A DNA stretch of 64,000 bases from positions 1 through 64,000 of the forward strand of contig CAWJBB010000046.1 in the NCBI GenBank assembly GCA_963840855.1, given 5' to 3'. How positions within the stretch are numbered: the stretch's first letter is position 1; each line of letters starts with the position of its first letter. Positions 6,300 through 23,167 of the stretch are shown here, piece by piece. The notes below the pieces were generated by a model. That model searched no databases, was not told the origin of the DNA, and worked only from the letters and a program-made list of their open reading frames with translations. Made by a program: the position numbers and the translations under genes. Source of the stretch: an uncultured delta proteobacterium (GTDB lineage: Bacteria; Desulfobacterota; Binatia; UBA9968).

Positions 6300-7868
6300 A
6301 TGCAGGAGAAGAAACGTCCTGGGCCGGTCGCCACGGCCTCGGTAGGCTTGCACCTGACGGATCAAAACCCGCCTCACAAACTGAATCCCGAATGTGTCGT
6401 CATTGTTTCGGACGACGAACGCAATCGTCTGCAATTCATCCGCCGTCTGATAGACAACTGCGAAATCCGCACGCAATGGGTCGAGGAATTTTCAGCAGCG
6501 GAGCAAATCGACGGCTCGGGTTGTTGTGGCATTGCTCTGGTCGCGTTAGGCGCAGGCGCGGCGCGTGGCGATCCTAGTTTGGATGTTATTCGCAGCTTGA
6601 ATCGGAAGGGATTCACGGTGATCAGTTACGGAGACGACATACCTTCTTGGTCCCTAAGCGCGCGATGCCGTGCTTTGATCGCCGGCTCTTCCTTGGTCAT
6701 CGATAGTGCCCAGGCGGAATTTGCGCAGCGACTGAGAAGTTTTCTGATCCAACACGTGCGTCTGCAAAGCGGCAGGCGGGCTGAAGAGGACAGAGTTAAG
6801 GCTACCATGAAGGAGTTAGGAGTCGTGGGCGAAAGCCCAGCCATGGTTGCCGTCTTCGGCCAAGTTATCCGGGTGAGCAGATTGAGCGATCTTCCGACGT
6901 TGATCACCGGCGAGAGCGGAACGGGAAAAGAACTCCTGGCTCGGGCGATCCATCAATTGAATCTCAAGGGGCGCAACGGTCCCTTTATCGCGGTGAATTG
7001 CGGCGCGATTAGCTCCGGTCTGGCGGAGAGCGAACTCTTCGGCCATCGTCGGGGTGCCTTTACGGGTGCGGATCGGGACCGTAAGGGTCTGATTCGGGCC
7101 GCCGAAGGTGGGGTTGTGTTTCTCGACGAAATCGGCGAGCTGGACGACACTCTACAGGTGAAGTTGTTACGAGTGTTGCAAGAGCGCCGAGTGCTCGGCG
7201 TGGGCGAAGATCAAGAGGTCCCGGTGAGCGTTCGAGTAATTGCCGCGACCAATCGAAATCTCAGCACAGCGGTGCAGCAGGGAAAATTTCGCGCCGATCT
7301 GTTTCATCGTCTGAACGTCTTATCGATCCATATCCCGTCGTTGCGCGAGAGACGCGCGGACGTTAGACCGCTGATCGAGCACTTGTTGGAGAAAAATCAG
7401 TCTTTGCATGCCGCCGGGTCTGTTTCGGCCGCTCCTGACTTTATCGAGGCGCTCACACGCATCGACCTGCCTGGCAACGTCAGACAGTTGGAGAATCTAG
7501 TGAGGCGAGCGCTGGTGAATAATGTTACGTCGACTCCCCTCAGTTTGACTGACCTGCCGGCTGAAGTCTGGCAACAGCTCGCCGGGCAAGAAGATCTTCA
7601 CGGGATTAGCTCAGAACAAAACGAAAGCGACGCTACTGGGAAGCCCACGCGCGAAGCGACGTCTCAAACTCTCTCGTCTGATCTAGTCAACCTGTTGGAC
7701 ACTCATAGGTGGAGTCTTGCGCAAACGCTGCGCTACTGCGAGAAGGTTTTGTTGGAAGCCGCGCTCCGCCGAAAACAAGGCAATCAGTCGCAAACCGCGC
7801 GGCTGCTTGGGCTTACACCCCGCAGTATCTACAGCAAGATGCGCAGGCATCATCTGAATAACGTCTAG
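6300..7868 (+). CDS. sigma-54-dependent enhancer-binding protein with degenerate N-terminal receiver-like domain
   Basis: GESGTGKE Walker [22 protein letters not shown] Walker [19 protein letters not shown] and C-terminal Fis-type HTH ([12 protein letters not shown]). Confidence 0.95.
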
Positions 7869-8203: not shown

Positions 8204-8218
8204 TGGCACGAGGCTTGC
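8204..8218 (+). promoter_or_regulatory. sigma-54 (-24/-12) promoter of the eCIS operon
   Basis: TGGCACGAGGCTTGC matches TGGCAC-N5-TTGC with exact GG-N10-GC spacing; lies between the bEBP and the first eCIS gene. Confidence 0.8.
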
Positions 8219-8230
8219 CGTGTGACGTCG

Positions 8231-8813: not shown

Positions 8814-10754
8814 ATGGCGCAGCTGACGTATCCAGGTGTCTACGTTGAAGAGGTTCCCAGCGGGGTACGACCCATCGCTGCGGCAAGCACCTCCATCGCG
8901 GCGTTCATCGGTATGGCAGAAAGAGGCACCGTGGGCGAGGCGGTGAAGGTCTTTAATTTCACCGAATATCAAAACCGCTACGGAGGGTTCCTCCCGGGCT
9001 CTTTTCTGAGTCACGCCGTCTATCAATTTTTCAACAACGGTGGAACCCAGTGTTACATCGTGCGTGTTGCAGGTGCGAATGCCGCTACCGCCAATATCGT
9101 TCTGCGCGATCGGGCGGCAACGAACCCGCAGGCAAGCCTCACGATCTTCGCTAGCAGTCCAGGGGTATGGGGCAACCAGTTGGCTGTGGTGATCGCCAAT
9201 GGGACCAACGACTCGGTCAACGAGTTTAATCTGGCGGTGTTCCGGCAAGATGAGTTGACCCCTTTGGAGCGCTTCGACAACTTGAGTATGGTTCCAGGCG
9301 CCCAGAACTTCGTCGAGACCGCCACTGCATCCTCACGCTATATCCGGGTAACTATCAACGCCGCGAACACCAACGCACAAGCGGGAACCAGTCGCGGCGC
9401 GGCGGCGCCGCTGGCATTGGTGAACCCAAGGACCCGGTTCCGCATCAATATCAACGGTGACGGGTATCAAGAAGTTGACCTCCAGGCCGCCGTACCCAAT
9501 CCAGCGCCAGATCTAAACTCGGCGGCGAACCTCGCTACCGCCATCCAGGCGCAGGTACGTGCACTGACGAAACTCCGCACCTCGACCAATCAAAATGCCT
9601 TCGCGAATTTTCTCTGCCAGGTCAACAATGGGGTGCTACTCCTCACGTCAGGGATGGCGAGCGTCGCTTCGTCGGTCAAGGTCGCTCTTGCCGCCAATAC
9701 CAGCCAGGATGCCACCGGGCTGCTGCGTTTGGGGCTGCACAACGGCGGTATAGAAACTCTTGGCGCGACGGTCCTCCGTCCGCAGAATAATCCTCCCCGT
9801 ACCCCACCCGATAACTACTTTTTTGTCGGTGATAATAGCGCCCCTACCGCTGAGGTCGTTTCTGTCACAGCGGGATCGGAGGGGAGTGCGATCACCACCG
9901 ATCAGCCGTACATCGATGCGTTTTCCAAGTTGGATGACAAGGAAGATGTAAGCTTGATTACTGTTCCTGGGATTGGGTCGGCTGGACTGGTAGGCGCGGG
10001 GATGAACTACTGCGCCAATCGCTCGCTCAGTGATTGCTTCTTCATCGGTGACATGACTCAAACTGACGATACAGTCGAAGAAGCGAAAAATTTTCGCAAC
10101 GCGATTACTCCGAAAAACTCGTATGGCGCTATCTACGCGCCCTGGGTGCAGATGCTCGACCCCACCGGCCGCTCATCGACGCCCATCCTTGTTCCGCCTT
10201 CGGGGTTCGTGGCCGGGTTGTATGCCAAGACCGACGGGCAGCGTGGAGTATGGAAAGCGGCAGCGGGAACGAGCGCTGCACTGGGCGGCAGTGTCGGGTT
10301 GGCAGTCAACCTGACCGATACACAGCAGGGCAACCTGAACCCGTTGAACGTCAACGTCCTTCGGCAGTTTGCTGGATCAGGCATTGTATTGTGGGGTGCG
10401 CGCACAGTGACATCCGATCCGGCCTGGAACTACATTCCCGTGCGCCGCATGGCGATCTTCCTACGGGTCAGCATCTATCGCGGCATTCAGTGGGCCGTGT
10501 TTGAGCCAAACGACGAAGATCTGTGGTCGTCCCTCCGCCTCAATATCGGCTCGTTCATGATGAACTTATTCCGCCAGGGCGCGTTTCAGGGAGCCACGCC
10601 GGCGCAAGCCTTTTTTGTCAAGTGTGACAATGAAACCACCACACAGGCTGAGATCGATGCGGGAATCGTCAACGTGTTGGTCGGCTTTGCACCGCTGCGG
10701 CCGGCGGAATTCGTCGTGGTCAAGATCAGCCAGAAGGTCGGTCAGACTGCCTAG
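8814..10754 (+). CDS. contractile tail sheath protein (Afp2/3/4-like)
   Basis: YPGVYVEEVPSG, PPSGFVAG, RGVWKA, LWGART, YIPVRR, WAVFEPND and GFAPLRPAEFVV motifs. Confidence 0.95.
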   Translation: MAQLTYPGVYVEEVPSGVRPIAAASTSIAAFIGMAERGTVGEAVKVFNFTEYQNRYGGFLPGSFLSHAVYQFFNNGGTQCYIVRVAGANAATANIVLRDRAATNPQASLTIFASSPGVWGNQLAVVIANGTNDSVNEFNLAVFRQDELTPLERFDNLSMVPGAQNFVETATASSRYIRVTINAANTNAQAGTSRGAAAPLALVNPRTRFRININGDGYQEVDLQAAVPNPAPDLNSAANLATAIQAQVRALTKLRTSTNQNAFANFLCQVNNGVLLLTSGMASVASSVKVALAANTSQDATGLLRLGLHNGGIETLGATVLRPQNNPPRTPPDNYFFVGDNSAPTAEVVSVTAGSEGSAITTDQPYIDAFSKLDDKEDVSLITVPGIGSAGLVGAGMNYCANRSLSDCFFIGDMTQTDDTVEEAKNFRNAITPKNSYGAIYAPWVQMLDPTGRSSTPILVPPSGFVAGLYAKTDGQRGVWKAAAGTSAALGGSVGLAVNLTDTQQGNLNPLNVNVLRQFAGSGIVLWGARTVTSDPAWNYIPVRRMAIFLRVSIYRGIQWAVFEPNDEDLWSSLRLNIGSFMMNLFRQGAFQGATPAQAFFVKCDNETTTQAEIDAGIVNVLVGFAPLRPAEFVVVKISQKVGQTA

Positions 10755-11297: not shown

Positions 11298-12212
11298 GTG
11301 AGTGAAGTGAGCACTCACGCAACTTTTCTTCTCCCAGGTGGTTATCGAGATCCCGGTGGAGAACTGCATCACGAGATAGAACTCGAACCGTTGAGTGGGC
11401 GTGAGGAGGAACTCCTTGCTGACTGCGAACCATCAACCAGAGCCACATTCTTGACGATGCTCCTCACCCGCTGTGTACACCGTATTGGACCAGTCAGCCC
11501 GATTTCGAGTGACATGGTTCGTAGCCTCCTGATTGCAGACCGTCACTATCTCTTACTCAAGCTACGGGAAGCAACTTTTGGAGATCACGTGCAAGCGACC
11601 GTCCAGTGCCCTTGGGAAGCGTGTCGGAAAAAAGTGGACATTGACTTTTCTCTTCATGATATCCCCGTGCGCGAGTCCGAAGAGAAAGGGCCGCTGTACA
11701 CGAGGGAACTCTCGCCAGAGGCAGCTTTCACTAACGAGCACGGAGAACCATACCGAGAGGTGGTGTTTCGGCTTCCCAACGGCGAGGATCAAGAAGCGAT
11801 TGCACATATGGTTGAAGAAAATGAGGCCAAGGCTCTCGCTTTGCTGCTGGCGCGGTGTATTTGCCGTCTTGGTTCCCTACAGGATCCCGGACCTGAGGTC
11901 ATCGATCGGTTGTCTTCACTCGCCCGCGCGGAAATTGAACGACACATGGAAGTGGCGGCGCCTCACGTCGACTTTACCCTGGCGGCGCGCTGCCCGGAGT
12001 GCGACCGTGAGTTTACCGTGCCTTTTGACTTGCAGGAGTTCTTTCTTGCCGAGTGTCAAACGAGTCGTGAGCTTCTCTATCGTGAGGTGCATTACCTTGC
12101 CTATCACTACCATTGGAGTGAACAAGAAATCCTGGCGCTGACTCGGGAAAAACGGCGGAAATATATCGCTATTCTCGCGGAAGAGCAGCGGAGAGTGAGC
12201 CATGCCATCTGA
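11298..12212 (+). CDS. eCIS baseplate/tail-assembly-chaperone-like protein with two internal repeats and C-terminal DUF6760-like segment
   Basis: LPGGY..., IADRHYLLLKLR.ATFG, two Cys pairs (CPWEAC, CPEC), YREVHYLAYHYHWSEQEIL. Confidence 0.7.
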   Translation: MSEVSTHATFLLPGGYRDPGGELHHEIELEPLSGREEELLADCEPSTRATFLTMLLTRCVHRIGPVSPISSDMVRSLLIADRHYLLLKLREATFGDHVQATVQCPWEACRKKVDIDFSLHDIPVRESEEKGPLYTRELSPEAAFTNEHGEPYREVVFRLPNGEDQEAIAHMVEENEAKALALLLARCICRLGSLQDPGPEVIDRLSSLARAEIERHMEVAAPHVDFTLAARCPECDREFTVPFDLQEFFLAECQTSRELLYREVHYLAYHYHWSEQEILALTREKRRKYIAILAEEQRRVSHAI

Positions 12213-13149
12213 GCCACTTCCTCCGCATAGTCAAAGCATCACCCGTCAGGGGCCTCCAGAGACGCTCCAGCACCCGCCCTCCAGGGGCGGCGTGAGGATG
12301 TTATTAGGGCTCCCGTTTAGTGGCAGCGGCGCCCTCTCCATGGTTGCCTCAACCGTGCCGGCAGGCCGAAATCGTTATGGCCAGTCGCCACTGCCAGCGC
12401 CCGAGGAGAGCACTGAGAGTTTCGCGGAAACACCAGCAGGTGAAGAAGTTATCGACGAGACGGATACACCGAGGAATTTCCCTCGGACGCCGTTACGCGA
12501 CGGCGCTCCGTTTTCACGAGCTATGCGGGAGAATGCTGCGGATGCGCGCTCAACTCTTACGGAACCGTCGGTAGAGGATCGTGAGCAGATACGCCTGGTC
12601 ATTCCTGGAGTCTCGACACACAGAACCGCTTTTCCGACTTTATCCCAGACCGTGGACATTCAGAGGAACAGCGTGGAGGGAGAACAGCGGGACACAATCC
12701 CGCCACAGGCCGCGCGGCTCAATGCTCCGGTCTCAATGACTCGTGCACGCGAGATGACAGGGTCGGACGTCGAGTTGCTGACCAGACTGGAACAACTCGT
12801 CACACAAGGTGTGAAGGCGCAGAAGAGTTCGGAGGCGCGCTCCAGATCGTCAGCGACGCTCTCACCTGGCCCTCTTGAGCCAATGAGCATGCAGAACGGA
12901 CAGCGAGGCGGTCAAGACCTGGCTCAGCGTTTCGAACAGCTGCAACGAACGGTGCGTGATTTAGCTGCGACCGTCTCGTCGCAGAGGGCGAGGAACCGAA
13001 ACGAAAGCCAAGCCCAGCGGAGCGAACCGAAGACGCCGCCACTGCAACGCACGGTGATCATTAAACATTCGGAGGCGTCGTCCACAGCACCACGGGCGTT
13101 TTGGGAACGCAGTCGACTCGGGCGTTTTTGTCTCAAAACCAGGCGATGA
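12202..13149 (+). CDS. hypothetical low-complexity/coiled-coil eCIS protein
   Basis: 315-aa ORF overlapping the upstream gene inside the operon. Confidence 0.6.
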   Translation: MPSEPLPPHSQSITRQGPPETLQHPPSRGGVRMLLGLPFSGSGALSMVASTVPAGRNRYGQSPLPAPEESTESFAETPAGEEVIDETDTPRNFPRTPLRDGAPFSRAMRENAADARSTLTEPSVEDREQIRLVIPGVSTHRTAFPTLSQTVDIQRNSVEGEQRDTIPPQAARLNAPVSMTRAREMTGSDVELLTRLEQLVTQGVKAQKSSEARSRSSATLSPGPLEPMSMQNGQRGGQDLAQRFEQLQRTVRDLAATVSSQRARNRNESQAQRSEPKTPPLQRTVIIKHSEASSTAPRAFWERSRLGRFCLKTRR

Positions 13150-13161
13150 AGGCACAACGGT

Positions 13162-14001
13162 ATGAGCGCCTCAACCGCTATAGGCATGGTGAGTGAATCT
13201 TTACGTAACCTCTTGTTGGAACCGATGAAGAAATTCACCCCGTCGGTGAAGGTAACAATTCTCGCGCCGGATGAGACCGGGGGTGACCCACCGAGGATAA
13301 ATTTGTTCCTGTATCGCATTCTAGAAAACTCCGCCCTCAAAAACCTCGATTGGCAAGTGAAACGAGGCGAGCCCTCGCGGATTGCGCCGCCGCCCTTGTC
13401 ATTAAATCTCTATTACGTCATGACGCCCTACGCACAAACCGTTTCAGAGACGGGGAACGCCACGAGCCATGCGATTCTCGGCGAGGCCATGCGGGTCTTT
13501 CATGAACATGCGGTCGTCCCCCAGAACGCGCTTGTTGAAGGCCTGCAAGACGCCGAGGAGCAGATCAAAATTATGCTGAATCCGTTGGACCCGGATGAAC
13601 TCGGCCGGGTGTGGACCACTTTTTCGCAGCCCTTTCGTCTCTCTGTGATGTACGAAGTTTCCGTTGTCCAGTTGGAGGTGAGCAGTGAACGACCCATGAG
13701 CAAACGAGTCCAGAGGATTGGTGTGCCGGATATCCGTGCGCCTTTTCGTCCACCCGTCGTGGAACGGCTGACCCCTCTCGGCGGTCCGCTGGGCACGCAA
13801 ATTACCGTAAGCGGTCAACATCTCGCGGGATGGCCCGCTTCTCTGAGCATCACCGGCCAAAAGATCATCGACGGCGCTGAACTCGATGGCGATACGATGA
13901 CGGCGACCATTCCCGCCGGGCTCGCTCCTGGGTTCCATGAAATCCAGGTGGACATCGCCCACCTACACCGACGCGTTTTCTTTTTTGAGGTGTCTGTATG
14001 A
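13162..14001 (+). CDS. DUF4255/Pvc16 (Afp16) tail terminator-like protein with C-terminal IPT/TIG-like domain
   Basis: AIGMVSESLRNLL, RINLFLY, PPLSLNLYY, WTTFSQPFRLSVMYEVSVV motifs. Confidence 0.9.
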   Translation: MSASTAIGMVSESLRNLLLEPMKKFTPSVKVTILAPDETGGDPPRINLFLYRILENSALKNLDWQVKRGEPSRIAPPPLSLNLYYVMTPYAQTVSETGNATSHAILGEAMRVFHEHAVVPQNALVEGLQDAEEQIKIMLNPLDPDELGRVWTTFSQPFRLSVMYEVSVVQLEVSSERPMSKRVQRIGVPDIRAPFRPPVVERLTPLGGPLGTQITVSGQHLAGWPASLSITGQKIIDGAELDGDTMTATIPAGLAPGFHEIQVDIAHLHRRVFFFEVSV

Positions 14002-16208
14002 TGTCAAAGCAAAAAGGACAACCGGCGCAGCACGCCTTTTATCAGGATAGCGTAGCGCACCTGGTCGATGAGCTTCGAAGACTGGATATGCTCATCCGGC
14101 GACACATTGCGACCGTCCGTCCGCAGCGACTGGCTGGGCAGGGCATGATGGCCTCCAAAGGGGTCTATATCACGCATGAAGAAGTGGATGCTCTACTGGA
14201 CCAAGAAAGCGCGGGTGACACCCACCCGCATGCGTTGGCCTCCGATCACCTTGACACCACTATTGCCGACAAAATCACCGCGAGCGCCAAAGAGGGAATT
14301 TTCCTGTCGCTGCCCTACGTAGCACAGCTCTTTTCGTTGTCTTCGTTCGAAGTGCAAACCCTCATCGTGTGTGTGGCTCCGGAACTGCGACGTAAGTACG
14401 ATACGCTCTATGCGTACCTCCAAGATGACATTACCCGCAAAAGGCCGAGTGTCGATTTAATCTTGGATCTCCTCTGCGCCTCCGAAGCCGAACGGTGGCG
14501 CGCCCGCACGGCGCTGTTCTCCGACCAGGCGCCGTTATTTCGCCACGGCATTCTCCATAGGGTAGAAGACCCCCGCAGTCCCGCCGGCTCGAGCGGTCTG
14601 GCGCAATTCTTACAGCTCGACCAGCGCATGCTTCACTATCTTTTGGAGAATGATGCAGTTAACCCACGTCTCGCCGGATACGCCACGCTACTGCTTCCTT
14701 CATTGACCCTTGAGCAGGTTCTGGTTGATCCGACGCTCAAAACCCGCTTGGTGAACTTATGCCAACGGTGGTTTTCTCAACCATCACCTGGACGGCAACC
14801 CTTCGTCTTTTATTTCCAGGGACCCCATGGCGTCGGCAAGCACGACCTGGCGATGGGTCTGTGTGCGCAGTGGGGCCGGCCCCTCCTGTACGTCGATATG
14901 CAACTCCTGCTTGCTCGTGAGCCGGAAGTAGCGGCGGCGTTGCGGTTGGTATTCCGTGAGGGACTCTTGTGGGACGCTGCGATCTATCTCAACGGTTGCG
15001 ATGCGCTATTGCAAGAAGACGTAAAGGCCAAAGCCTGGGTGAAAACGCTCGCGCGGATGGTGGACGAGTATGGTCAACTCACCTTTCTGGCGGGAGGACT
15101 CCCTTGGTCACTGCAGGGAGTTTTTGATCAGGACAGCTTCTGTGCCGTGGAACTGGCGATGCCCGACGTGTCTCTCCGAGAGACCGCGTGGCAGCGTGCG
15201 CTGCAACGTTTCCCCTTAAATGGTGCGCAATCCTGGGCCGGCGAACTGGCGAGTCAGTTTCGTTTGACGCCAGGGCAGATTCAGGAAGCCGCCGCCTGGG
15301 TCGTACAACAGCGGGCGATGGCGAGCGACGAAGCAGACGTGACACGCGCCGAGCTGTACGCCGCCTGTCGCAAACAATCGCACCACAAATTAGCGGAGCT
15401 GGCCGTCAAGATCGAACCGCACTACCAGTGGGACGACCTCGTGCTTCCCATCGACAAACGAGAGCAGCTTAGAAATCTCTGCAGCCAGGTTGCGCATCGC
15501 CACCGCGTCTTTGGTGACTGGGGGTTTGGGCGCAAGCTCGCCCATGGCCGCGGGATCAGCGCGCTCTTCTCGGGACCATCGGGCACGGGCAAGACCATGG
15601 CCGCCGAAGTCATCGCGCATGAGTTGCAGCTCGATCTGTACAAGATCGATCTCTCCGGCGTCGTCAATAAATATATTGGCGAGACCGAGAAGAACCTGGC
15701 CAAGATCTTCCACGAAGCCGAAGCGAGCAATGCCATCCTCTTCTTCGATGAAGCTGACGCGCTCTTTGGCAAACGCACGAAAATCTCCGACGCCCACGAC
15801 CGCTATGCCAACATTGAGACGAGTTATCTGCTGCAACGCGTGGAGGCGTATGAGGGCGTCGTGATTCTCGCCACCAACCTGCGCGAGAACATGGATGAGG
15901 CGTTTACCCGGCGAATCAAGTTTATCGTCGACTTCCCGTTCCCCGATGTCACAAGCCGTAAAGCAATCTGGCAGGTGCACTTCCCACGTGAGGCGCCGGT
16001 GAGCGATGACCTCGATTACGACTGGCTCGCCCAGCGGTTACAGATCACCGGCGGCAACATCAAGAACATTGTCCTCAACGCCGCATTTTTTGCCGCCGCT
16101 GACGGCGGGGTGATCGGGATGGAGCATATTCTGCGCGGCGCCCGAGGCGAGTTCGAGAAGATTGGCAAACTGTGGAACGACAAGGACTTTGTCCAACTAC
16201 AACGCTAA
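13998..16208 (+). CDS. eCIS AAA+ ATPase (Afp15/Pvc15-like)
   Basis: LYAYLQDD.TRKRPS, WDDLVLP, GPSGTGKT, KYIGETEKNL, FFDEADALFGKR and DAHDRYAN motifs. Confidence 0.95.
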   Translation: MMSKQKGQPAQHAFYQDSVAHLVDELRRLDMLIRRHIATVRPQRLAGQGMMASKGVYITHEEVDALLDQESAGDTHPHALASDHLDTTIADKITASAKEGIFLSLPYVAQLFSLSSFEVQTLIVCVAPELRRKYDTLYAYLQDDITRKRPSVDLILDLLCASEAERWRARTALFSDQAPLFRHGILHRVEDPRSPAGSSGLAQFLQLDQRMLHYLLENDAVNPRLAGYATLLLPSLTLEQVLVDPTLKTRLVNLCQRWFSQPSPGRQPFVFYFQGPHGVGKHDLAMGLCAQWGRPLLYVDMQLLLAREPEVAAALRLVFREGLLWDAAIYLNGCDALLQEDVKAKAWVKTLARMVDEYGQLTFLAGGLPWSLQGVFDQDSFCAVELAMPDVSLRETAWQRALQRFPLNGAQSWAGELASQFRLTPGQIQEAAAWVVQQRAMASDEADVTRAELYAACRKQSHHKLAELAVKIEPHYQWDDLVLPIDKREQLRNLCSQVAHRHRVFGDWGFGRKLAHGRGISALFSGPSGTGKTMAAEVIAHELQLDLYKIDLSGVVNKYIGETEKNLAKIFHEAEASNAILFFDEADALFGKRTKISDAHDRYANIETSYLLQRVEAYEGVVILATNLRENMDEAFTRRIKFIVDFPFPDVTSRKAIWQVHFPREAPVSDDLDYDWLAQRLQITGGNIKNIVLNAAFFAAADGGVIGMEHILRGARGEFEKIGKLWNDKDFVQLQR

Positions 16209-16377: not shown

Positions 16378-19101
16378 ATGGGTACGACACGAGCCGCGAC
16401 AACACACGATAAACAAGGGAGCCCAACCTCGACCCGAGAGGCGCCTCAGGGTCGCACGTATGGGCGAAGACAGCTTGACAATGTTCCAGAATCGACTCCG
16501 CCGCTGGATCGGTACCTCGGCAATAGTTACGTGCAATCCTTGGCTGTCAGAGAGAGTAGACTACAGCAGGAATCATCCTTGCCACCGATTGTAAGTGAAG
16601 TCTTACACTCGTCGGGTCAGCCACTCGATCCCAACACTCGCACGTTTATGGAGTCTCGTTTTGACGCCGACTTCAGCCAAGTGCGGGTGCATAGTGATGG
16701 GCAAGCGGTAGCGTCGGCACGGGCGCTTCAGTCATCAGCCTACACCGTGGGGCGGGACATTATTTTTGGAGCAGGCCAGTTTGCGCCCCACGCAGCTCAA
16801 GGCCGCCGGTTGTTGGCGCATGAGTTAACGCATGTGGTGCAGCAGGGGCAGAGTGCGAGTACCCCCCACCACTTGATAAGTAGTCCGGCAGACACGGCGG
16901 AAGTGGAAGCTGGGCGCATTGCTAAGAGGATTCTGACCCCGTCGCCCAACCTGATTGCGGTGAAAGTTAGTGCACAGCGGACCGCAACCGTGCAGCGGCA
17001 AGCCAGTCCAGATGAGTTTACATTCCTGCGCAAGCCATCGCTCCCGTCCATTACAGCGCGGGTATCCAGTGGCGAAGACAAGGATGAATACCTCAAACAA
17101 CAGATTTCCTTATCTCTCAAACAGGGGCATTTTGATTTGAAAGCTCGGGCTCAACGAAGCGTCAGCGCAGGCGGCGACTTAAGACAGCTGTGGAGAACGA
17201 TAAATAGCTCACATGAGTTCGACTCACTTTTGAATCGTCTCATCTACACCCGTTATTTCCTCAAGTACTTCACTCAAGCTTGGGAGGATCGGGAACTCAG
17301 TGACGACGAGACAGCAGCCTGGCTTTTCCAAATTGAAAAAGCTTATCAAAGGCACGCGGAAGAAGAGGCACTCAAACCCGTCGACGAAGCCATCCTCAGA
17401 GAGAACGAACGAGCGAGGCAGGAATATCAGGAAAATGTGATCAAACAGGAAATCGCGAAGCTGCAGAAGCAGGAAGCCATTCGGAAATTCCCTGGTCACA
17501 TCGATCCAAGAAAATATCCGGGAGTGATCCCGCACGGTCTGGCCCTTTTGACGAATCCGACGGTGATGGCTGTGGTCAATATGTCGATTTACTTTGTCCC
17601 TGTCGTTGGTCAGGCGCGGGGAATCGTTGAGGCAATCGTCGGCTACAATTTACTTACTAGGGAGAAGCTGGGTCTCCTTGATCGGCTACTCGGTGCGCTT
17701 CCACTGGCTCCTCTAGCGCTGAAAGGCGGCAAAATCGTGATCCGCGGCGCGAGTCTCGTGGTGAATACCGCAACCGAAAAAGCAGCATTGATTCTGGCTA
17801 TCTCGAAAAGGGTCAGAAAGGAACCCGCAGAAATTTTGGCATTGCTAAGCAGGCTGGAAAAGCCCGCAGCCCGTATCGATACCATTCGCGAAGCAAGAGC
17901 CGCAATTGCGGCAGGTCGGAATCTCAGTGCGGCAGAGTTGAAGGTGCTGAAGGAAGTCGACGAGGCGTTGCAGGGCGGCAAGGCGATACCAAAGGCCAGC
18001 GCCGGATCTACCGCACCGCTAGCGCCAGTCGGACCTGCCGGCGCTGCGAAAGAATTCCCCATACCGCCTAAACCCGCAGCCCCAGCGCCCACTCCTGCGC
18101 CACCACCTCAGCCAGCGCCGCCACGGGGACAGCTTGCGAAGGATCCGGGCTCCGCTCCGCCCGAGCCGGTCATAGCTACTAATAAGGGTCGGTCCCCTAC
18201 GATACGGCCAGGCGGAAGCCAGGCCAAATACCGCCGGCCTCCCCCCGGGGGGTACAGAGTGCCGCCCCGCCGCGGCGAGCTGCGGACCGATCTTCCCAAG
18301 GGGGCCCGCAGGGGGGACCGCCGCGGCGCGACGCCAACCGGTCCTCCCAGGAGGAGGCGCGGCGGTGGGGGCGAAGGGGAAACTCCGCCTGACTTTGACG
18401 ACATACCGACTAGTATTCGACAGCGTCCAGGCGAGAAACCACAGACGCCACAGGAGACCGTCCAAGGCAAGATCGGGGAAGCACAAGCAGGGCGGCCAGT
18501 GTCACCACCGCGGCCAGCGCCACCATCGCCCGCCACGGTGCATCCCCGTCTCGTCCCCAGAAAGGTGCCAGTGCCACCATCGCCCGCCACGGTGCATCCC
18601 CGTCTCGTCCCCAGAAAGGTGCCAGTGCCACCACGGCAGCCAGGGCAACCACCGCCAGTGCCACCACGGCAGCCAGCGCAACCACCGCCAGTGCCACCAC
18701 GGCAGCCAGCGCAACCACCGCCAGTGCCACCACGGCAGCCAGCGCCAGCACCGACCGCCGTACCAGAACCGCGTGCAGCACTGCAAGGGAAACCAGACTG
18801 GAACAAACTTCCTGTACCCAAAGGTTACAGAAGACCTGATGGTACAATAGAAATAGATCGCTTTGGCCGGGAAGTCATACGGTGGGGAATGGGGACGGAA
18901 GAAGCGAAGAATCTTGTGGAGATGATGAATTCAGCAGGGAGAAGAAGCCGAGCGTACCTAAAAGACCTGAGGAGCAGGGGCGTGACGCCCGAGATGGCGC
19001 GAGCGTGGGCCAAGGAATACCAGGGTTTCGCTAACAATAATCCGAATCCGACTGCCCCATGGCGCGCAGAACTCCTGCGCCTGATTGCCGAGCGGCTCTA
19101 G
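16378..19101 (+). CDS. eCIS core DUF4157 protein / polymorphic toxin (DUF4157, PT-TG-like, Pro-rich linker, DUF4951-like C-terminal domain)
   Basis: GQPLD...FMESRF.ADFSQVRVH...AYTVGRDIIFG...LLAHELTHVVQQ; FVPVVGQARGIVEAIVGYNLLTREKL; C-terminal FGREVIRWG.G...GVTPEMARAW...NNPNPTAPWRAELL. Confidence 0.85.
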   Translation: MGTTRAATTHDKQGSPTSTREAPQGRTYGRRQLDNVPESTPPLDRYLGNSYVQSLAVRESRLQQESSLPPIVSEVLHSSGQPLDPNTRTFMESRFDADFSQVRVHSDGQAVASARALQSSAYTVGRDIIFGAGQFAPHAAQGRRLLAHELTHVVQQGQSASTPHHLISSPADTAEVEAGRIAKRILTPSPNLIAVKVSAQRTATVQRQASPDEFTFLRKPSLPSITARVSSGEDKDEYLKQQISLSLKQGHFDLKARAQRSVSAGGDLRQLWRTINSSHEFDSLLNRLIYTRYFLKYFTQAWEDRELSDDETAAWLFQIEKAYQRHAEEEALKPVDEAILRENERARQEYQENVIKQEIAKLQKQEAIRKFPGHIDPRKYPGVIPHGLALLTNPTVMAVVNMSIYFVPVVGQARGIVEAIVGYNLLTREKLGLLDRLLGALPLAPLALKGGKIVIRGASLVVNTATEKAALILAISKRVRKEPAEILALLSRLEKPAARIDTIREARAAIAAGRNLSAAELKVLKEVDEALQGGKAIPKASAGSTAPLAPVGPAGAAKEFPIPPKPAAPAPTPAPPPQPAPPRGQLAKDPGSAPPEPVIATNKGRSPTIRPGGSQAKYRRPPPGGYRVPPRRGELRTDLPKGARRGDRRGATPTGPPRRRRGGGGEGETPPDFDDIPTSIRQRPGEKPQTPQETVQGKIGEAQAGRPVSPPRPAPPSPATVHPRLVPRKVPVPPSPATVHPRLVPRKVPVPPRQPGQPPPVPPRQPAQPPPVPPRQPAQPPPVPPRQPAPAPTAVPEPRAALQGKPDWNKLPVPKGYRRPDGTIEIDRFGREVIRWGMGTEEAKNLVEMMNSAGRRSRAYLKDLRSRGVTPEMARAWAKEYQGFANNNPNPTAPWRAELLRLIAERL
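18519..18745 (+). repeat. in-frame tandem repeats: 2 x 54 bp and about 3.6 x 33 bp
   Basis: Exact 54-bp duplicate (18519-18572, 18573-18626; PPSPATVHPRLVPRKVPV) then 33-bp units from 18627 (PPRQPAQPPPV). Confidence 0.95.
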
Positions 19102-19188
19102 GCAGAAAAGGAAGGTGTTCTGTCTTGGCTTCAGGAACTTTTGCGACCGCGCAATTGATACCACAGTAGACGAACTAAGGAGCATACT

Positions 19189-19890
19189 ATGCCAGGCGGT
19201 CTTCGCAACCAACCCAAAGTGTTTCGCGGCGCGTTTGTGGAATACGGACTTAGCATTCCGCCGCTTGTGGTGGTGTTTCAATTTAACCCTGTGCAACTGT
19301 CGCGCGGCCGCACGCAAGAGTTCTCCATGACCGCCTCCACCCAGCGGTGGAACGACGGGTACGGTCTGACCCTGAGAGATTTTCACCAGGGCTTCAACGA
19401 TCTCTTAAAGTTGCGCGACGCCCAGTACGTCACCACGCATCCGGAATCCCTTGGTTTTGAAATTCTCCTGGATGCGACCGACAAATTGAACGAAGGCGAT
19501 CGTATCACCGAAGAGCTTGGCATTGCACCGCAACTGGCGACACTGGAACTGATGGCCCAGCCCAAAAAGGAAAGCATCTTTGGCGCCCTCGTTCAGCAGC
19601 TCCTGCCGCGTCGTTTCAGTTTCACAGGTACGGAAAAACCTCCGATGATCCTATTCGTCTGGGGGCGCAAGCGGATCCTCCCAGTGAATATCAACAGCCT
19701 AACGATCACCGAAACAGAGTTCCACACCAACCTTGAGCCGATCCGCGCGACAGTGGCGGTTGATCTCACGGTCATCGAGGGGCCGAATCCAGCTCATACG
19801 TACACCAAAACCCGGAAGGAACTCATGTCGGGGTTGCGCCTCGCCAATCTGAGGGCGACAGACGTCATGGACGTAGTTATCCCGCGCTGA
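19189..19890 (+). CDS. CIS tube-like / Afp7 N-terminal-type protein
   Basis: VVVFQFNP.QLSR, FEILLDATD, LFVWG.KRILPV.I.SLTITE.EF...L.PIRA.V. Confidence 0.85.
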   Translation: MPGGLRNQPKVFRGAFVEYGLSIPPLVVVFQFNPVQLSRGRTQEFSMTASTQRWNDGYGLTLRDFHQGFNDLLKLRDAQYVTTHPESLGFEILLDATDKLNEGDRITEELGIAPQLATLELMAQPKKESIFGALVQQLLPRRFSFTGTEKPPMILFVWGRKRILPVNINSLTITETEFHTNLEPIRATVAVDLTVIEGPNPAHTYTKTRKELMSGLRLANLRATDVMDVVIPR

Positions 19891-19895
19891 GGGCG

Positions 19896-20489
19896 GTGAA
19901 ATATATGTTTTCTCGTCTCTCTCGTTACCGTACGCTACCGGATATCATCACCACTGACGCCGAAGGGCGGACGTCGGTCTCCAAGACTTTACGTCCCCTG
20001 CCGCAGGCGCCGGGGACATTTCGTCACACCGTGGAAGATGCCGACCGTCTGGACCACTTGGCGTATAAGTACTACCGACAACCAACCAAATGGTGGCGGC
20101 TGAGTGACGCCAACCCGGAGTTTCTTTCGCCCCAGGCATTACTGGGCAAGGAGCCGATTGTCACAGATCGTTTTCCCTTGGAGTTCGACGGCGCCCAGCC
20201 TCCGTGGCCTGACTTGGTGCGGAATCTGACACAACATGTCGGCGTCGAACAAGTCAAAGTGGTGGAGGAGATAGATTACGCACTTGAGGAACGGATGATC
20301 GGGAGACGGAGAGTGACCCTCCACGTCGAGCGGTTCGAACGCGCGATCCTCGTGACCTACAACCAGTTGAACACGAGCGCCAGGGAGTTGGCGGGGATTA
20401 TTACTGCCTCGGGCTTTGCCATACGAGCGCCGGAAAGGCTCGGCCGCGTGGGTAAACAAATCATTATTCCACGTGACGTGACGGTGTAG
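19896..20489 (+). CDS. LysM/tail-X-like eCIS protein with internal insertion
   Basis: MFSRLSRY, HTVEDADRLDHLAYKYY.QPTKWWRLSDANP ... GKQIIIP. Confidence 0.8.
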   Translation: MKYMFSRLSRYRTLPDIITTDAEGRTSVSKTLRPLPQAPGTFRHTVEDADRLDHLAYKYYRQPTKWWRLSDANPEFLSPQALLGKEPIVTDRFPLEFDGAQPPWPDLVRNLTQHVGVEQVKVVEEIDYALEERMIGRRRVTLHVERFERAILVTYNQLNTSARELAGIITASGFAIRAPERLGRVGKQIIIPRDVTV

Positions 20490-21647: not shown

Positions 21648-22262
21648 GTGGAGTTAGAAAAGGTCGTTGCCGACCTGCTGCAGAAGGTCGAACGACGATT
21701 CTACGGGAAGTATCGCGGCTTTGTCGTGAATACGGAAGACCCGAAACGTCTTGGCCGGGTCAGGCTTCAGGTACCCAGTGTGTTGGGTCGTGAGGTCGTC
21801 ACCGGCTGGGCGATGCCCTGTGTGCCCTATGGCGGCCAGAAGAATCAGGGCTTTCTCAGTATCCCCGAGGTTGGCGCCGGCGTCTGGGTGGAGTTCGAGG
21901 AAGGCGACCTGGAATTCCCCATTTGGGTGGGCACCTTCTGGAGTGAACCGGGTGGCGAGAGCGAGATCCCCGCGCTCAACGGCGCCGACGGCAAGGAACG
22001 CAAGAACGAGCAAAAACCACCAACCCGCAAGATCATCAAGACCCAAAAAGGGCATACCATCCAGTTTGAAGATGCGGATGGCGAGGAAATGGTCACGATC
22101 ATCCAACGTATCAACAAGGACCTCTGTAACGTTATTACACTGAAGAATGACGGGATCACTATCAGTTCGGCTGGCGATGTCACGATCACCGGCAAAAATG
22201 TCACCATTGAAGCACAAGGCAAACTGGCAGCAATCGGGAATCCGATTCATCTCAACCCCTAA
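21648..22262 (+). CDS. gp5/gpV baseplate spike (OB-fold) protein
   Basis: FYGKYRG.V....DP..LGRVR.QVP, GWAMPCVP, PEVGAGVWVEFE.GD..FPIW.G. Confidence 0.92.
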   Translation: MELEKVVADLLQKVERRFYGKYRGFVVNTEDPKRLGRVRLQVPSVLGREVVTGWAMPCVPYGGQKNQGFLSIPEVGAGVWVEFEEGDLEFPIWVGTFWSEPGGESEIPALNGADGKERKNEQKPPTRKIIKTQKGHTIQFEDADGEEMVTIIQRINKDLCNVITLKNDGITISSAGDVTITGKNVTIEAQGKLAAIGNPIHLNP

Positions 22263-22269
22263 AACAACA

Positions 22270-22735
22270 ATGGAAACCTTTTTTCCCACCGCTATCGGCT
22301 ACGAAGGGTTTTTCCTGGTTGGATTTCGCAAGACGGATAACGCGATCACCCAGCGTACGGGGACGGCTATCCTCAAGCGGACCTACGATGTGGATCCTGC
22401 GGCAGGTGTGTTGACACCGTCTCCGGACGCGTTGCCCATCTTTTTTCAAGACTCTGCGGATAACCTCGTCGAGAATAGCGATTTTGCCAGAGTCACCAAT
22501 GGGTCGCCGACCGCGTGGCAGAGGGAGTCCGCGACCATAGCCGTCGAACCAGGCCACGGCGTGTCTGGCAACGCCCTGAGGGTTACCGGGACCGCGAATG
22601 GCCGTGCCCTTCAGACCCTGACGTTTCGACGCGCCGTTAGGAGGGCGTCAGTTTGTTTTGAGCTTTTCGGCGAAATCCTTGCCCGCTGCCCCGGAAGACG
22701 GGTACCGTCGGTTGGTCGTAGAGGCATCACTGTAG
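22270..22735 (+). pseudogene. short DUF2169-like N-terminus fused to a CBM4/9-like segment, with a +1 frameshift at about 22625
   Basis: AILKRTYDV...LTPSPDALPIF.QD then NLVENSDF...W; removing one T in TTT (22624-22626) gives TLTFDAPLGGRQFVLSFSAK...RRLVVEASL* ending just before the next RBS. Confidence 0.55.
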
Positions 22736-22750
22736 AGGAGTGCACGAGAT

Positions 22751-23167
22751 ATGGCAAAACCAATCGCCCCAGCGAAGGGAGTCGCGTATGCGCTCCCAGA
22801 TGTTTGCAAAACACCTTCAGGGCCGGGAGCGGTGCCGATTCCGTATCCCAACGTGGCCCAGTTAAGCCAGGCGACTAGCATCACCAATGAGAGTGACAAG
22901 GAAATGCTTGTGGGACCAGGCGGCGACTATGTCCTGTTACTCGACGCACAAGTCACAAGTAGCAGCGGTGACGAGGCAGGTTCACTGGGCGGAGTGAAAA
23001 GTGGCGGCGTCAAAGGGAAATGTCGTATCGTGCAGGCCAGCCAGAGTGTGGTCTACGGGCCACAGGAGAAAGGGATCGTACACTTTCTCGACCGTACCCA
23101 ACACAATAACGAGAACGGCCAAGGCGTGGTGCTCAGTGCATTCCCTCGGGTGTTAGTGCGTGATTAA
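22751..23167 (+). CDS. DUF4150 PAAR-like (PIPY) spike-tip protein
   Basis: PDVCKTP...PIPYPN, SSGDEAG..GGVKSG, and TQHNNEN motifs. Confidence 0.9.
   Translation: MAKPIAPAKGVAYALPDVCKTPSGPGAVPIPYPNVAQLSQATSITNESDKEMLVGPGGDYVLLLDAQVTSSSGDEAGSLGGVKSGGVKGKCRIVQASQSVVYGPQEKGIVHFLDRTQHNNENGQGVVLSAFPRVLVRD

Follow-up and report, generated by a model that had tools for sequence, protein, structure and literature searches.

Why does a gene built like a toxin gene have no antidote gene beside it? The question is raised by positions 16378 to 19101 of the forward strand of a 64,000-nucleotide stretch of contig CAWJBB010000046.1 (the window), from the genome of an uncultured member of the Binatia, a genome whose rpoB is about 89-91% identical to metagenome-derived proteins named Candidatus Binatia bacterium. 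The gene encodes a protein of 907 amino acids (aa) within an operon for an extracellular contractile injection system (eCIS). The protein begins with the domain DUF4157, now named eCIS_core in Pfam, and ends in the domain DUF4951. A first-pass annotation made from the DNA letters alone proposed it to be an uncharacterised toxin delivered by the eCIS and lacking an immunity gene. We infer toxicity, loading and delivery from the comparisons below, and consider that the gene probably encodes an eCIS cargo toxin with DUF4951 as its warhead.

Part of this picture is familiar. DUF4157 is described as an eCIS core domain, often N-terminal and followed by a very long linker and a C-terminal toxin, and many validated eCIS toxins, antibacterial ones included, are "puzzlingly" without an immunity gene (Geller 2021, PMC8213781). 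DUF4157 occurs in 51.5% of predicted eCIS toxins, according to Danov et al. (2024, PMC11297309). Hence, the architecture and the missing immunity gene are already known features of eCIS toxins. The three targets put forward in the first-pass annotation, namely eukaryotes, another compartment, or the producer itself, are not needed to explain the missing gene, because toxins with DUF4157 and no immunity gene are a published general feature of eCIS (PMC8213781). The new elements are the functional assignment of DUF4951 to toxin tips, a partner family that had no annotation before, and the contrast between contexts that have this partner and contexts that lack it.

DUF4951 tips and the gene downstream

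A phmmer search with aa 800-907 over 1.84 billion representative proteins gives 39 matches at E ≤ 1e-3. The Pfam DUF4951 family is found at E ≤ 1e-3 in 37 of these, five of them under the gathering score, and the remaining 2 are repeat proteins with no Pfam DUF4951 match (P0142, P0151). In all 13 proteins of at least 293 aa the domain occupies the extreme C-terminus. Its partners there include eCIS_core in 5 (P0021, P0122, P0123, P0133, P0145), RHS/YD-shell in 1 (P0139) and PT-HINT in 2 (P0137, and P0130 below the Pfam cut-off). The first-pass annotation had placed DUF4951 on polymorphic-toxin tips, which is borne out, as the domain is found on RHS, PT-HINT and DUF4157 proteins.

Scans with subsets of the DUF4951 alignment (A2 and A4, with polymorphic-toxin-type tips for the genome collection) were used to collect loci with their neighboring genes. 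The genome collection yields 13 loci, spread over Chloroflexota, Bacteroidota, Planctomycetota, Acidobacteriota, Abditibacteriota and other groups. In 12 of the 13, an open reading frame (ORF) of 73-113 aa on the same strand begins immediately past the DUF4951 stop. These ORFs align as one family, here called A3, with N15 invariant, as are E26, P27 and G29 of an EPxG motif, a (Y/H)GW motif further on, and no N-terminal hydrophobic stretch in its members. When an A3 profile is run over the six-frame ORFs of all loci and of the window, it matches directly behind DUF4951 in all 13 genome loci (83.7-103 bits) and downstream in 7 of the 12 metagenome loci of a second scan (L020, L021, L023 and L025-L028; 22.6-89 bits). 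The other five metagenome loci are two eCIS loci (L017, L019), one whose contig ends 100 bp past the stop (L018), and two of a signal-peptide subgroup taken up below (L022, L024). With L018, L022 and L024 left out of the tally, A3 follows DUF4951 in 20 of the 20 non-eCIS loci counted, at 39 bits or more in all except L027.

The tips with this partner come in several forms. Pfam finds RHS repeats in the tip ORFs of L011, L014 and L027 and PT-HINT in those of L020 and L021; L006 has a weak RHS match under the cut-off, and its upstream ORF has SpvB and RHS repeats. No eCIS_core is found in the Pfam-scanned tip ORFs of the A3-bearing loci. Several loci are short cassettes of a stand-alone tip and its partner.

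For L006, the tip (17-row alignment) and the downstream protein (12-row alignment) were modeled as a complex. The interaction prediction score from aligned errors (ipSAE) is 0.78 (0.80, 0.78 and 0.76 in the separate runs), and the best control scores 0.02. Among solved complexes, 116 of 157 reach this ipSAE mark, as do 2 of 215 mismatched pairs, counts that hold only roughly here because the alignments were our own. At least 94% of contacts recur between the runs, and the partner has a predicted local distance difference test (pLDDT) score of at least 83. The confident interface takes in family-wide motifs of both proteins: on the toxin side FG (residues 26-27), NPSA (79-82) and R85, together with a strand just ahead of the domain, and on the partner side EPWG (26-31) and YGW (64-72). 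We know of no solved complex of this kind, and since A3 has no sequence relative in PDB, a high score drawn from model memory is unlikely. The model supports binding between DUF4951 and A3, and its natural reading is that A3 would be an immunity protein covering the functional patch of the toxin.

That patch can be traced in the window protein. The 29-sequence alignment of DUF4951 (A1) has W836, W877 and Y881 invariant and F829, G830, G839, G868, T870, R896 and L899 conserved in at least 90%, and the conserved patch of the tip comprises F829 and G830, W836, G839, G868, T870, W877, Y881, N890-A893 and R896. No Asp, Glu, His, Cys, Ser or Lys is invariant in that alignment. For that reason we lean slightly toward a domain that binds or blocks a ligand or protein rather than one that catalyzes a reaction; we would put a catalytic DUF4951 a little short of an even chance.

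Structure prediction and a fold search of the tip, both proposed in the first-pass annotation, lead to one solved structure. The AlphaFold2 (AF2) model from the 29-sequence alignment has five helices and a pLDDT of 93.4. The tip matches PDB ID: 2mmb_A by sequence at E = 1.6e-6. Foldseek against PDB finds 2mmb alone, with a probability of 1.00 and a template modeling (TM) score of 0.65 but E = 6.6e-3, which is above the 0.001 line of that search, and the next match has E > 1. VIA-align over 48,161 chains puts 2mmb at Z = 11.8 with a root-mean-square deviation of 3.5 Å over 93 residues, followed by generic helical rows at Z ≤ 5.4. The named clusters of the ESM Atlas give no usable match to aa 815-907. 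The 2MMB protein (YP_001712342.1, from Acinetobacter baumannii, solved by nuclear magnetic resonance and uncharacterized) shares with the tip its family, its fold and the motifs FG, W, GxT, W, Y, NPxNPTA and R. Our full-text literature search found no paper naming DUF4951 or PF16309, and the texts containing "2MMB" are unrelated by title.

The partner family is equally short of relatives. A3 has no Pfam family (best FixG_C, E = 0.004, in 2 of 12 members), no NCBIfam family and no PDB sequence match. Its AF2 model is a seven-strand all-beta protein with a pLDDT of 85. The best fold relatives, at Z = 5.0, are parts of aerolysin-type pore-forming toxins (lysenin, parasporin-2), and were set aside as uninformative.

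Some arrangements of the pair stand out on their own account. In three Planctomycetota metagenome-assembled genomes (MAGs), a DUF4951 of about 100 aa and an EPWG partner form a cassette between rpoB and rpoC (L010:4929-5510, L012:387-976, L013:2903-3478), with the DUF4951 frame broken in L013; the same type of cassette lies between atpA and atpG in an Abditibacterium MAG (L009:4956-5580). From gene order and sequence, these would be toxin-antidote-like pairs inside core operons. The rpoB-rpoC position suggested RNA polymerase as the target, an idea that is weakened by the atpA-atpG cassette and was dropped. After PT-HINT-type tips, 2 EPWG partner genes stand in tandem (L020:2451-3055, L021:3265-3869, L023:370-972). 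In L025 the DUF4951 match (frame 1971-2261) and the partner (frame 1913-2605) closely overlap in different frames.

The eCIS loci and the missing partner

The best A3 profile match in the window has E = 4, with no matching ORF in or around the short gap that follows the gene, and the best over its own 94%-complete genome has E = 0.9, inside a 340-aa ORF. The first-pass statement that no cognate immunity ORF follows the gene thus stands, and for an A3-type partner it widens from the DNA downstream to the genome as assembled. A3 is also absent downstream in L017 and L019, the other eCIS loci with downstream DNA, so that the tally is 0 of 3 eCIS loci versus 20 of 20 other loci. The chance that three empty loci would be exactly the three eCIS loci is 1 in 1771, calculated by hand for loci that are not independent, the window and L019 being kin.

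L019 has the gene order of the window: an ATPase, a 1279-aa protein running from DUF4157 to DUF4951, 86 bp, CIS_tube, a 194-aa ORF and GPD. The order in L017 is a PT-TG protein, a Gln_amidase toxin, a 1134-aa DUF4157 to DUF4951 protein, an unrelated 87-aa ORF, Pvc16_N and a sheath gene. The tips of L017 and L018 are 77-78% identical to the window tip. The window tip itself keeps every patch residue that is covered in the model of the complex (F829, G830, N890-A893, R896), which argues for the same activity as in the forms that require immunity. As a separate observation, the 436-aa PT-TG and 156-aa Gln_amidase (papain-fold toxin 1) genes directly upstream in L017 (L017:203-2071) make several cargo or toxin genes in a row.

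Swapping of C-termini among homologs, raised as a check in the first-pass annotation, is what the relatives display. P0004 is 94-100% identical to the window protein across DUF4157, the middle region and PT-TG and 34% in the linker, and ends in a short helical tail like the second half of DUF4951 only (27% over that half, no Pfam match). P0008 has 64% identity in the N-terminus and 94% in DUF4157, after which the remainder is unrelated and ends in HopA1 (PF17914, E = 2.9e-17). P0005-P0007 have a PT-TG that is 73-75% identical and different unannotated C-termini. P0020 and P0021 combine the common N-terminus and DUF4157 with another middle lacking PT-TG, a linker of the P0004 type and a DUF4951 tip, and P0122 has a 75% identical tip behind an unrelated middle. 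Over its full length, aa 1-81 is 57-64% identical to the N-termini of P0003, P0008, P0020 and P0021, which bear other middles or tips. The middle region is 92-97% identical in P0003 and P0004 and partly conserved in P0005-P0007, and the Ala-rich stretch is kept alongside PT-TG in P0003-P0007. Near-identical N-termini with other tips, HopA1 or unannotated, mean that tips have been swapped, and the alignments show modules (N-terminus with DUF4157, middle with PT-TG, linker, tip) that related proteins combine differently. A half-length DUF4951-like helical segment is seen both at the C-terminus of P0004 (aa 655-702) and as an internal copy before the full tip of P0122 (aa ~985-1040); such segments may be a remnant of an earlier tip replacement.

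The window protein has the published layout of eCIS cargo: a polar N-terminus, DUF4157, a long linker and a variable tip, encoded right after an AAA+ ATPase gene. In the AlgoCIS system, the disordered N-terminal region of the DUF4157 proteins Cgo1 and Cgo2 is required for loading and DUF4157 is dispensable, as reported in a 2026 preprint (10.64898/2026.05.27.728243). By analogy, aa 1-81 fits a system-specific loading sequence. As a working model, the ATPase would read this polar N-terminus as a loading signal and feed the largely unfolded protein into the tube lumen, where the 270-residue proline-rich linker would lie extended. Contraction would expel the protein into a target cell, and the DUF4951 tip would fold there. 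Its patch (FG loop, Trp/Tyr, NP[ST]A loop, invariant Arg) would act on a cytoplasmic target that bacteria possess, and in the RHS, PT-HINT and cassette contexts the EPWG/YGW protein would block that same patch by direct binding. That the DUF4951 antidote has no signal peptide is what points to the bacterial cytoplasm. The eCIS producer would need no antidote: its tip would stay unfolded or sequestered until release, or the producer cells would lyse in setting the particles free; sequestration or unfolding before release and producer lysis are both among the ideas published for producers without antidotes (PMC8213781).

A wider proposal, which we hold only tentatively, is that DUF4951 and the EPWG/YGW protein are an undescribed toxin-immunity pair acting in the bacterial cytoplasm and occurring in three guises: RHS or PT-HINT tips, cassettes in core operons, and antidote-free eCIS cargo. 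If this is true, the eCIS form would show how a self-toxic warhead is made safe, with ATPase loading and the N-terminal modules keeping the tip unfolded, and how a producer survives its own antibacterial eCIS toxins would become directly testable.

Several points weigh against reading the window gene as a cargo toxin that does without its antidote. There is a DUF4951 subgroup of 129-144 aa with a signal peptide or lipobox (P0144, P0146, P0150, P0153, P0154; 120-158 bits), to which L022, L024 and 2MMB also belong. It adjoins housekeeping genes (MlaA, SpoIIE, STAS and CN_hydrolase in L022, OsmC in L024) and has no A3 gene, and its existence means that the DUF4951 fold is not toxic by necessity. 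The domain has no recognizable catalytic residues or informative fold relative. A frameshifted version of the gene, P0002, is present in the protein collection. The informative eCIS loci number only 3, two of which (the window and L019) are syntenic kin. Being short and built from loci other than eCIS, the A3 profile would miss a diverged or unrelated immunity protein. Finally, the source genome is a MAG of 7.1 Mb (93 contigs, 94% completeness, 8% contamination), so that an immunity gene could lie in unassembled DNA.

The main rival is a toxin for eukaryotic cells only, in which the eCIS subgroup of DUF4951 would have diverged to become harmless to bacteria, so that no immunity gene was kept. 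The absence of A3 from all three eCIS loci is what this would predict. The eCIS-type tips are a subgroup of their own, in which helices 2 and 3 are set about 10 residues further apart and NPTA or NKTA replaces NPSA, the sister protein with the same N-terminus (P0008) bears HopA1, a family named after a plant-pathogen effector, and published eCIS toxins include anti-eukaryotic ones (PMC8213781). We nevertheless think it unlikely: the tip keeps all of the patch residues that immunity proteins would cover, and antibacterial eCIS toxins in the published set likewise come without immunity genes (PMC8213781).

Less probable again, and in our view improbable, is a structural or assembly component, a "core" DUF4157 protein such as a lumen plug or assembly factor whose DUF4951 is a protein-binding module. 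The domain has no catalytic signature and one of its subgroups sits by housekeeping genes; DUF4157 is classed as a core eCIS domain (PMC8213781); the genome has one eCIS_core match, in this gene; and the gene lies between ATPase and baseplate genes with no terminator around it, a synteny kept in L019. Against this, near-identical N-termini bear unrelated tips. In RHS and PT-HINT proteins DUF4951 sits where the toxin belongs, and a partner gene of its own accompanies it in 20 of 20 such loci. In AlgoCIS the tube lumen is filled by the DUF4157 proteins Cgo1 and Cgo2, and particles without DUF4157 proteins still assemble, but empty (Xu et al. 2022, PMC8894135). A genome of the same genus (G002) has a 262-aa DUF4157-only protein in the position behind the ATPase, a slot that can therefore do without the tip. 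The same genome has two further DUF4157 proteins, both without DUF4951. With the N-terminal 541 aa as query, it is one of 2 with matches among 40 other genomes, the second being the unpublished G015 with a match to PT-TG only.

A decaying gene, or an assembly artifact in a repeat-rich region, with no functional tip, is very improbable: P0002 does shift frame after about aa 700, near-perfect repeats like those of the linker are prone to assembly error, and the metagenome contig sets give no cover of 18912-19200, but no stop interrupts the 907-aa frame in linker or tip, the Pfam score of the tip exceeds the cut-off and its model has a high pLDDT, all four length variants from independent contigs stay in frame, and the close relatives of the tip in L017 and L018 include one that ends an intact 1134-aa DUF4157 protein.

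Taking the cargo toxin as the preferred reading, its value lies less in mechanism than in what becomes testable. Many eCIS toxins carry DUF4157, most of their tips are unannotated, and their usual lack of immunity genes is noted in the field without explanation (PMC8213781). DUF4951, a domain with a solved structure, would receive a functional label, and the partner would add a small immunity family to which nothing in Pfam, NCBIfam or PDB corresponds. The loci with and without A3 offer matched contexts for asking whether eCIS cargo is held inactive in the producer.

Likeness to known systems

The polymorphic toxin system, as Zhang et al. reportedly laid it out in 2012, has a trafficking module, a pre-toxin module, a variable C-terminal toxin and an adjacent immunity gene. 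Set against these, the window protein has the pre-toxin domain and the variation of tips, and has no downstream immunity gene.

Cgo1 and Cgo2, from Algoriphagus machipongonensis, are the closest described parallel in layout. Like the window protein, they have an N-terminal region, DUF4157 and differing C-terminal domains, and come from an eCIS cluster with a Pvc15-like ATPase. The window protein adds PT-TG, a 270-aa proline-rich repeat linker and a DUF4951 end, and its sequence relation to them was compared for DUF4157 only. Also in distinction to Cgo1 and Cgo2, the window gene is the single DUF4157 gene of its genome, between ATPase and baseplate genes. The eCIS-associated toxins (EATs) EAT11 and EAT14 share with it an N-terminal DUF4157, a long linker, a C-terminal toxin domain and usually no immunity gene (PMC8213781, PMC11297309). 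The EAT tips described are a deaminase, a transglutaminase and the like, and the text cited does not name DUF4951, the window tip, among them.

The RHS and PT-HINT toxins of our own loci (L006, L011, L014, L027, L020, L021) share with the window protein the DUF4951 tip, the same patch and a pre-toxin module upstream. They differ in having the EPWG/YGW gene directly downstream, sometimes in two copies, in having RHS or HINT instead of DUF4157 and PT-TG, and in having no eCIS genes nearby. The 2MMB subgroup differs in another way, being made of stand-alone proteins of ~130-150 aa with a signal peptide or lipobox, found at L022 and L024 by housekeeping genes and with no partner gene.

PT6, of Nachmias et al. 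(bioRxiv 10.1101/2021.10.19.465003), is a short C-terminal toxin fused to DUF4157, for which no immunity gene is reported. It is described as toxic only in the periplasm. As summarized in the preprint, their pipeline kept only clusters with no known-domain match, a filter that would probably have removed a Pfam family like DUF4951, and an overlap of one of their PT families with DUF4951 is unlikely.

The gene and its operon

Positions 16378-19101 hold a single long ORF. Its first ATG is the only plausible start because the frame from stop to stop is just 913 aa. The domain calls, all three of which exceed the Pfam curated cut-offs, are given in Table 1 with the adjoining genes. They bear out the first-pass picture of an N-terminal DUF4157 with HELTH, a PT-TG segment, a Pro/Arg-rich linker (which it put at about 250 aa), a DUF4951-like C-terminal domain and 87 bp from the stop to the next structural gene, and its coordinates all lie within a few codons of the computed ones.

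Table 1. Features of the window gene and the genes on either side, in window positions
Feature	Residues (aa)	Position	Strand	Basis
Pvc15-like AAA+ ATPase, presumed cargo loader		13998..16208	+	winged-helix domain (WHD) PF22977 E 2.3e-52; AAA PF00004 E 6.6e-31
N-terminal region, candidate loading sequence	1-81	16378..16620	+	polar, hydrophobic-poor
eCIS_core PF13699 (formerly DUF4157)	82-158	16621..16851	+	E 2.1e-31, 108.4 bits vs cut-off 22
HELTH (HExxH motif)	148-152	16819..16833	+	inside eCIS_core
Middle region	159-399	16852..17574	+	no Pfam/NCBIfam family match
PT-TG PF14449 pre-toxin domain	400-456	17575..17745	+	E 1.3e-9, 38.3 bits vs 23.5
Ala-rich stretch accompanying PT-TG	457-545	17746..18012	+	22% Ala
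Pro/Arg-rich linker	546-815 (270 aa)	18013..18822	+	30% Pro, tandem repeats
DUF4951 PF16309 tip, including stop	816-907	18823..19101	+	match aa 823-905, E 4.7e-12, 46.3 bits vs 27.3
87-bp spacer		19102..19188	.	stop to CIS_tube, without immunity ORF
CIS_tube		19189..19890	+	PF19266 E 6.5e-10; baseplate and spike genes next

On simple scales alone, aa 1-81 has 21% hydrophobic residues, a mean Kyte-Doolittle value of -0.5 to -1.6 and a TOP-IDP value of 0.19-0.28 versus about 0.05-0.1 in the folded domains. PT-TG is the most hydrophobic part of the protein, with 47% hydrophobic residues. The DUF4951 tip scores 50.7 bits in a six-frame search of its own genome and is the sole DUF4951 match there. 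An NCBIfam scan of the whole protein finds 0 families. Two candidates were discarded: Peptidase_M78 over the HExxH region, which at E = 0.082 is under the cut-off, and a match to the Tox-REase-5 structure PDB ID: 7dym (E = 0.58), whose alignment joins proline-rich stretches only.

The linker is net basic, with 16% Arg plus Lys versus 6% Asp plus Glu, and contains two near-perfect tandem repeats, one of 54 bp in 2.2 copies (18513-18633) and one of 33 bp in 4 copies (18621-18753), matching at 97-98%. Fragments of the gene are found in soil-metagenome contigs. Four soil or metagenome contig sets cover parts of 17900-18911, leaving 18912-19200 outside, and supply four length variants of the linker: 3 nucleotides (nt) off at 18035; 36 nt; 87 nt; and 55 nt off with 7 in, a net 48. 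All four are in frame; the copy number of the linker repeats varies between populations with the reading frame kept. Under half of the sampled words of the region are present in every run, with values of 0.05-0.07 in two RNA runs. P0002 is an 823-aa version in the protein collection (4 member sequences, one 3483-bp contig), identical to the window protein to about aa 700. Beyond that it follows the frame of the ORF at 18365-18850, which corresponds to one G fewer in the GGGG run at 18473-18476. The missing G may reflect an error in sequencing or a genuine frameshift allele.

The window gene is the seventh of a complete eCIS operon on one strand. Upstream are a sheath gene (starting at 8814), a tube gene (10615), a T4_baseplate/DUF6760 gene (11298), an unannotated ORF (12202), Pvc16_N (13162) and, directly 5' of the window gene as also in L019, the ATPase with WHD and AAA domains (13998). 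Downstream follow CIS_tube, a 197-aa ORF, GPD, a spike (Phage_base_V), an unannotated ORF, a Tox-PAAR-like gene, gp25, Baseplate_J, P2_I and a gene for a DUF6519 protein; DUF6519 is described as the eBAP5 fiber-anchor domain (PMC12923769). For four ORFs of this run (12202-13149, 19896-20489, 22147-22878, 28633-29265), neither Pfam nor NCBIfam gives a significant match. Between 15900 and 19400 there are 0 promoter-like sites and 6 terminator-like sites versus 4.2 expected, none of the latter within either spacer flanking the gene.

The only sigma-54-promoter-like site of the window is at 8204-8219 on the forward strand, TGGCACGAGGCTTGCC, with 1 mismatch, where 2.2 such sites are expected by chance per window. 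The 945-bp spacer that contains it is flanked by a sigma-54 activator gene (6300-7868; Sigma54_activat E = 4.9e-63) and by the sheath gene, a position from which the eCIS operon may be sigma-54-dependent.

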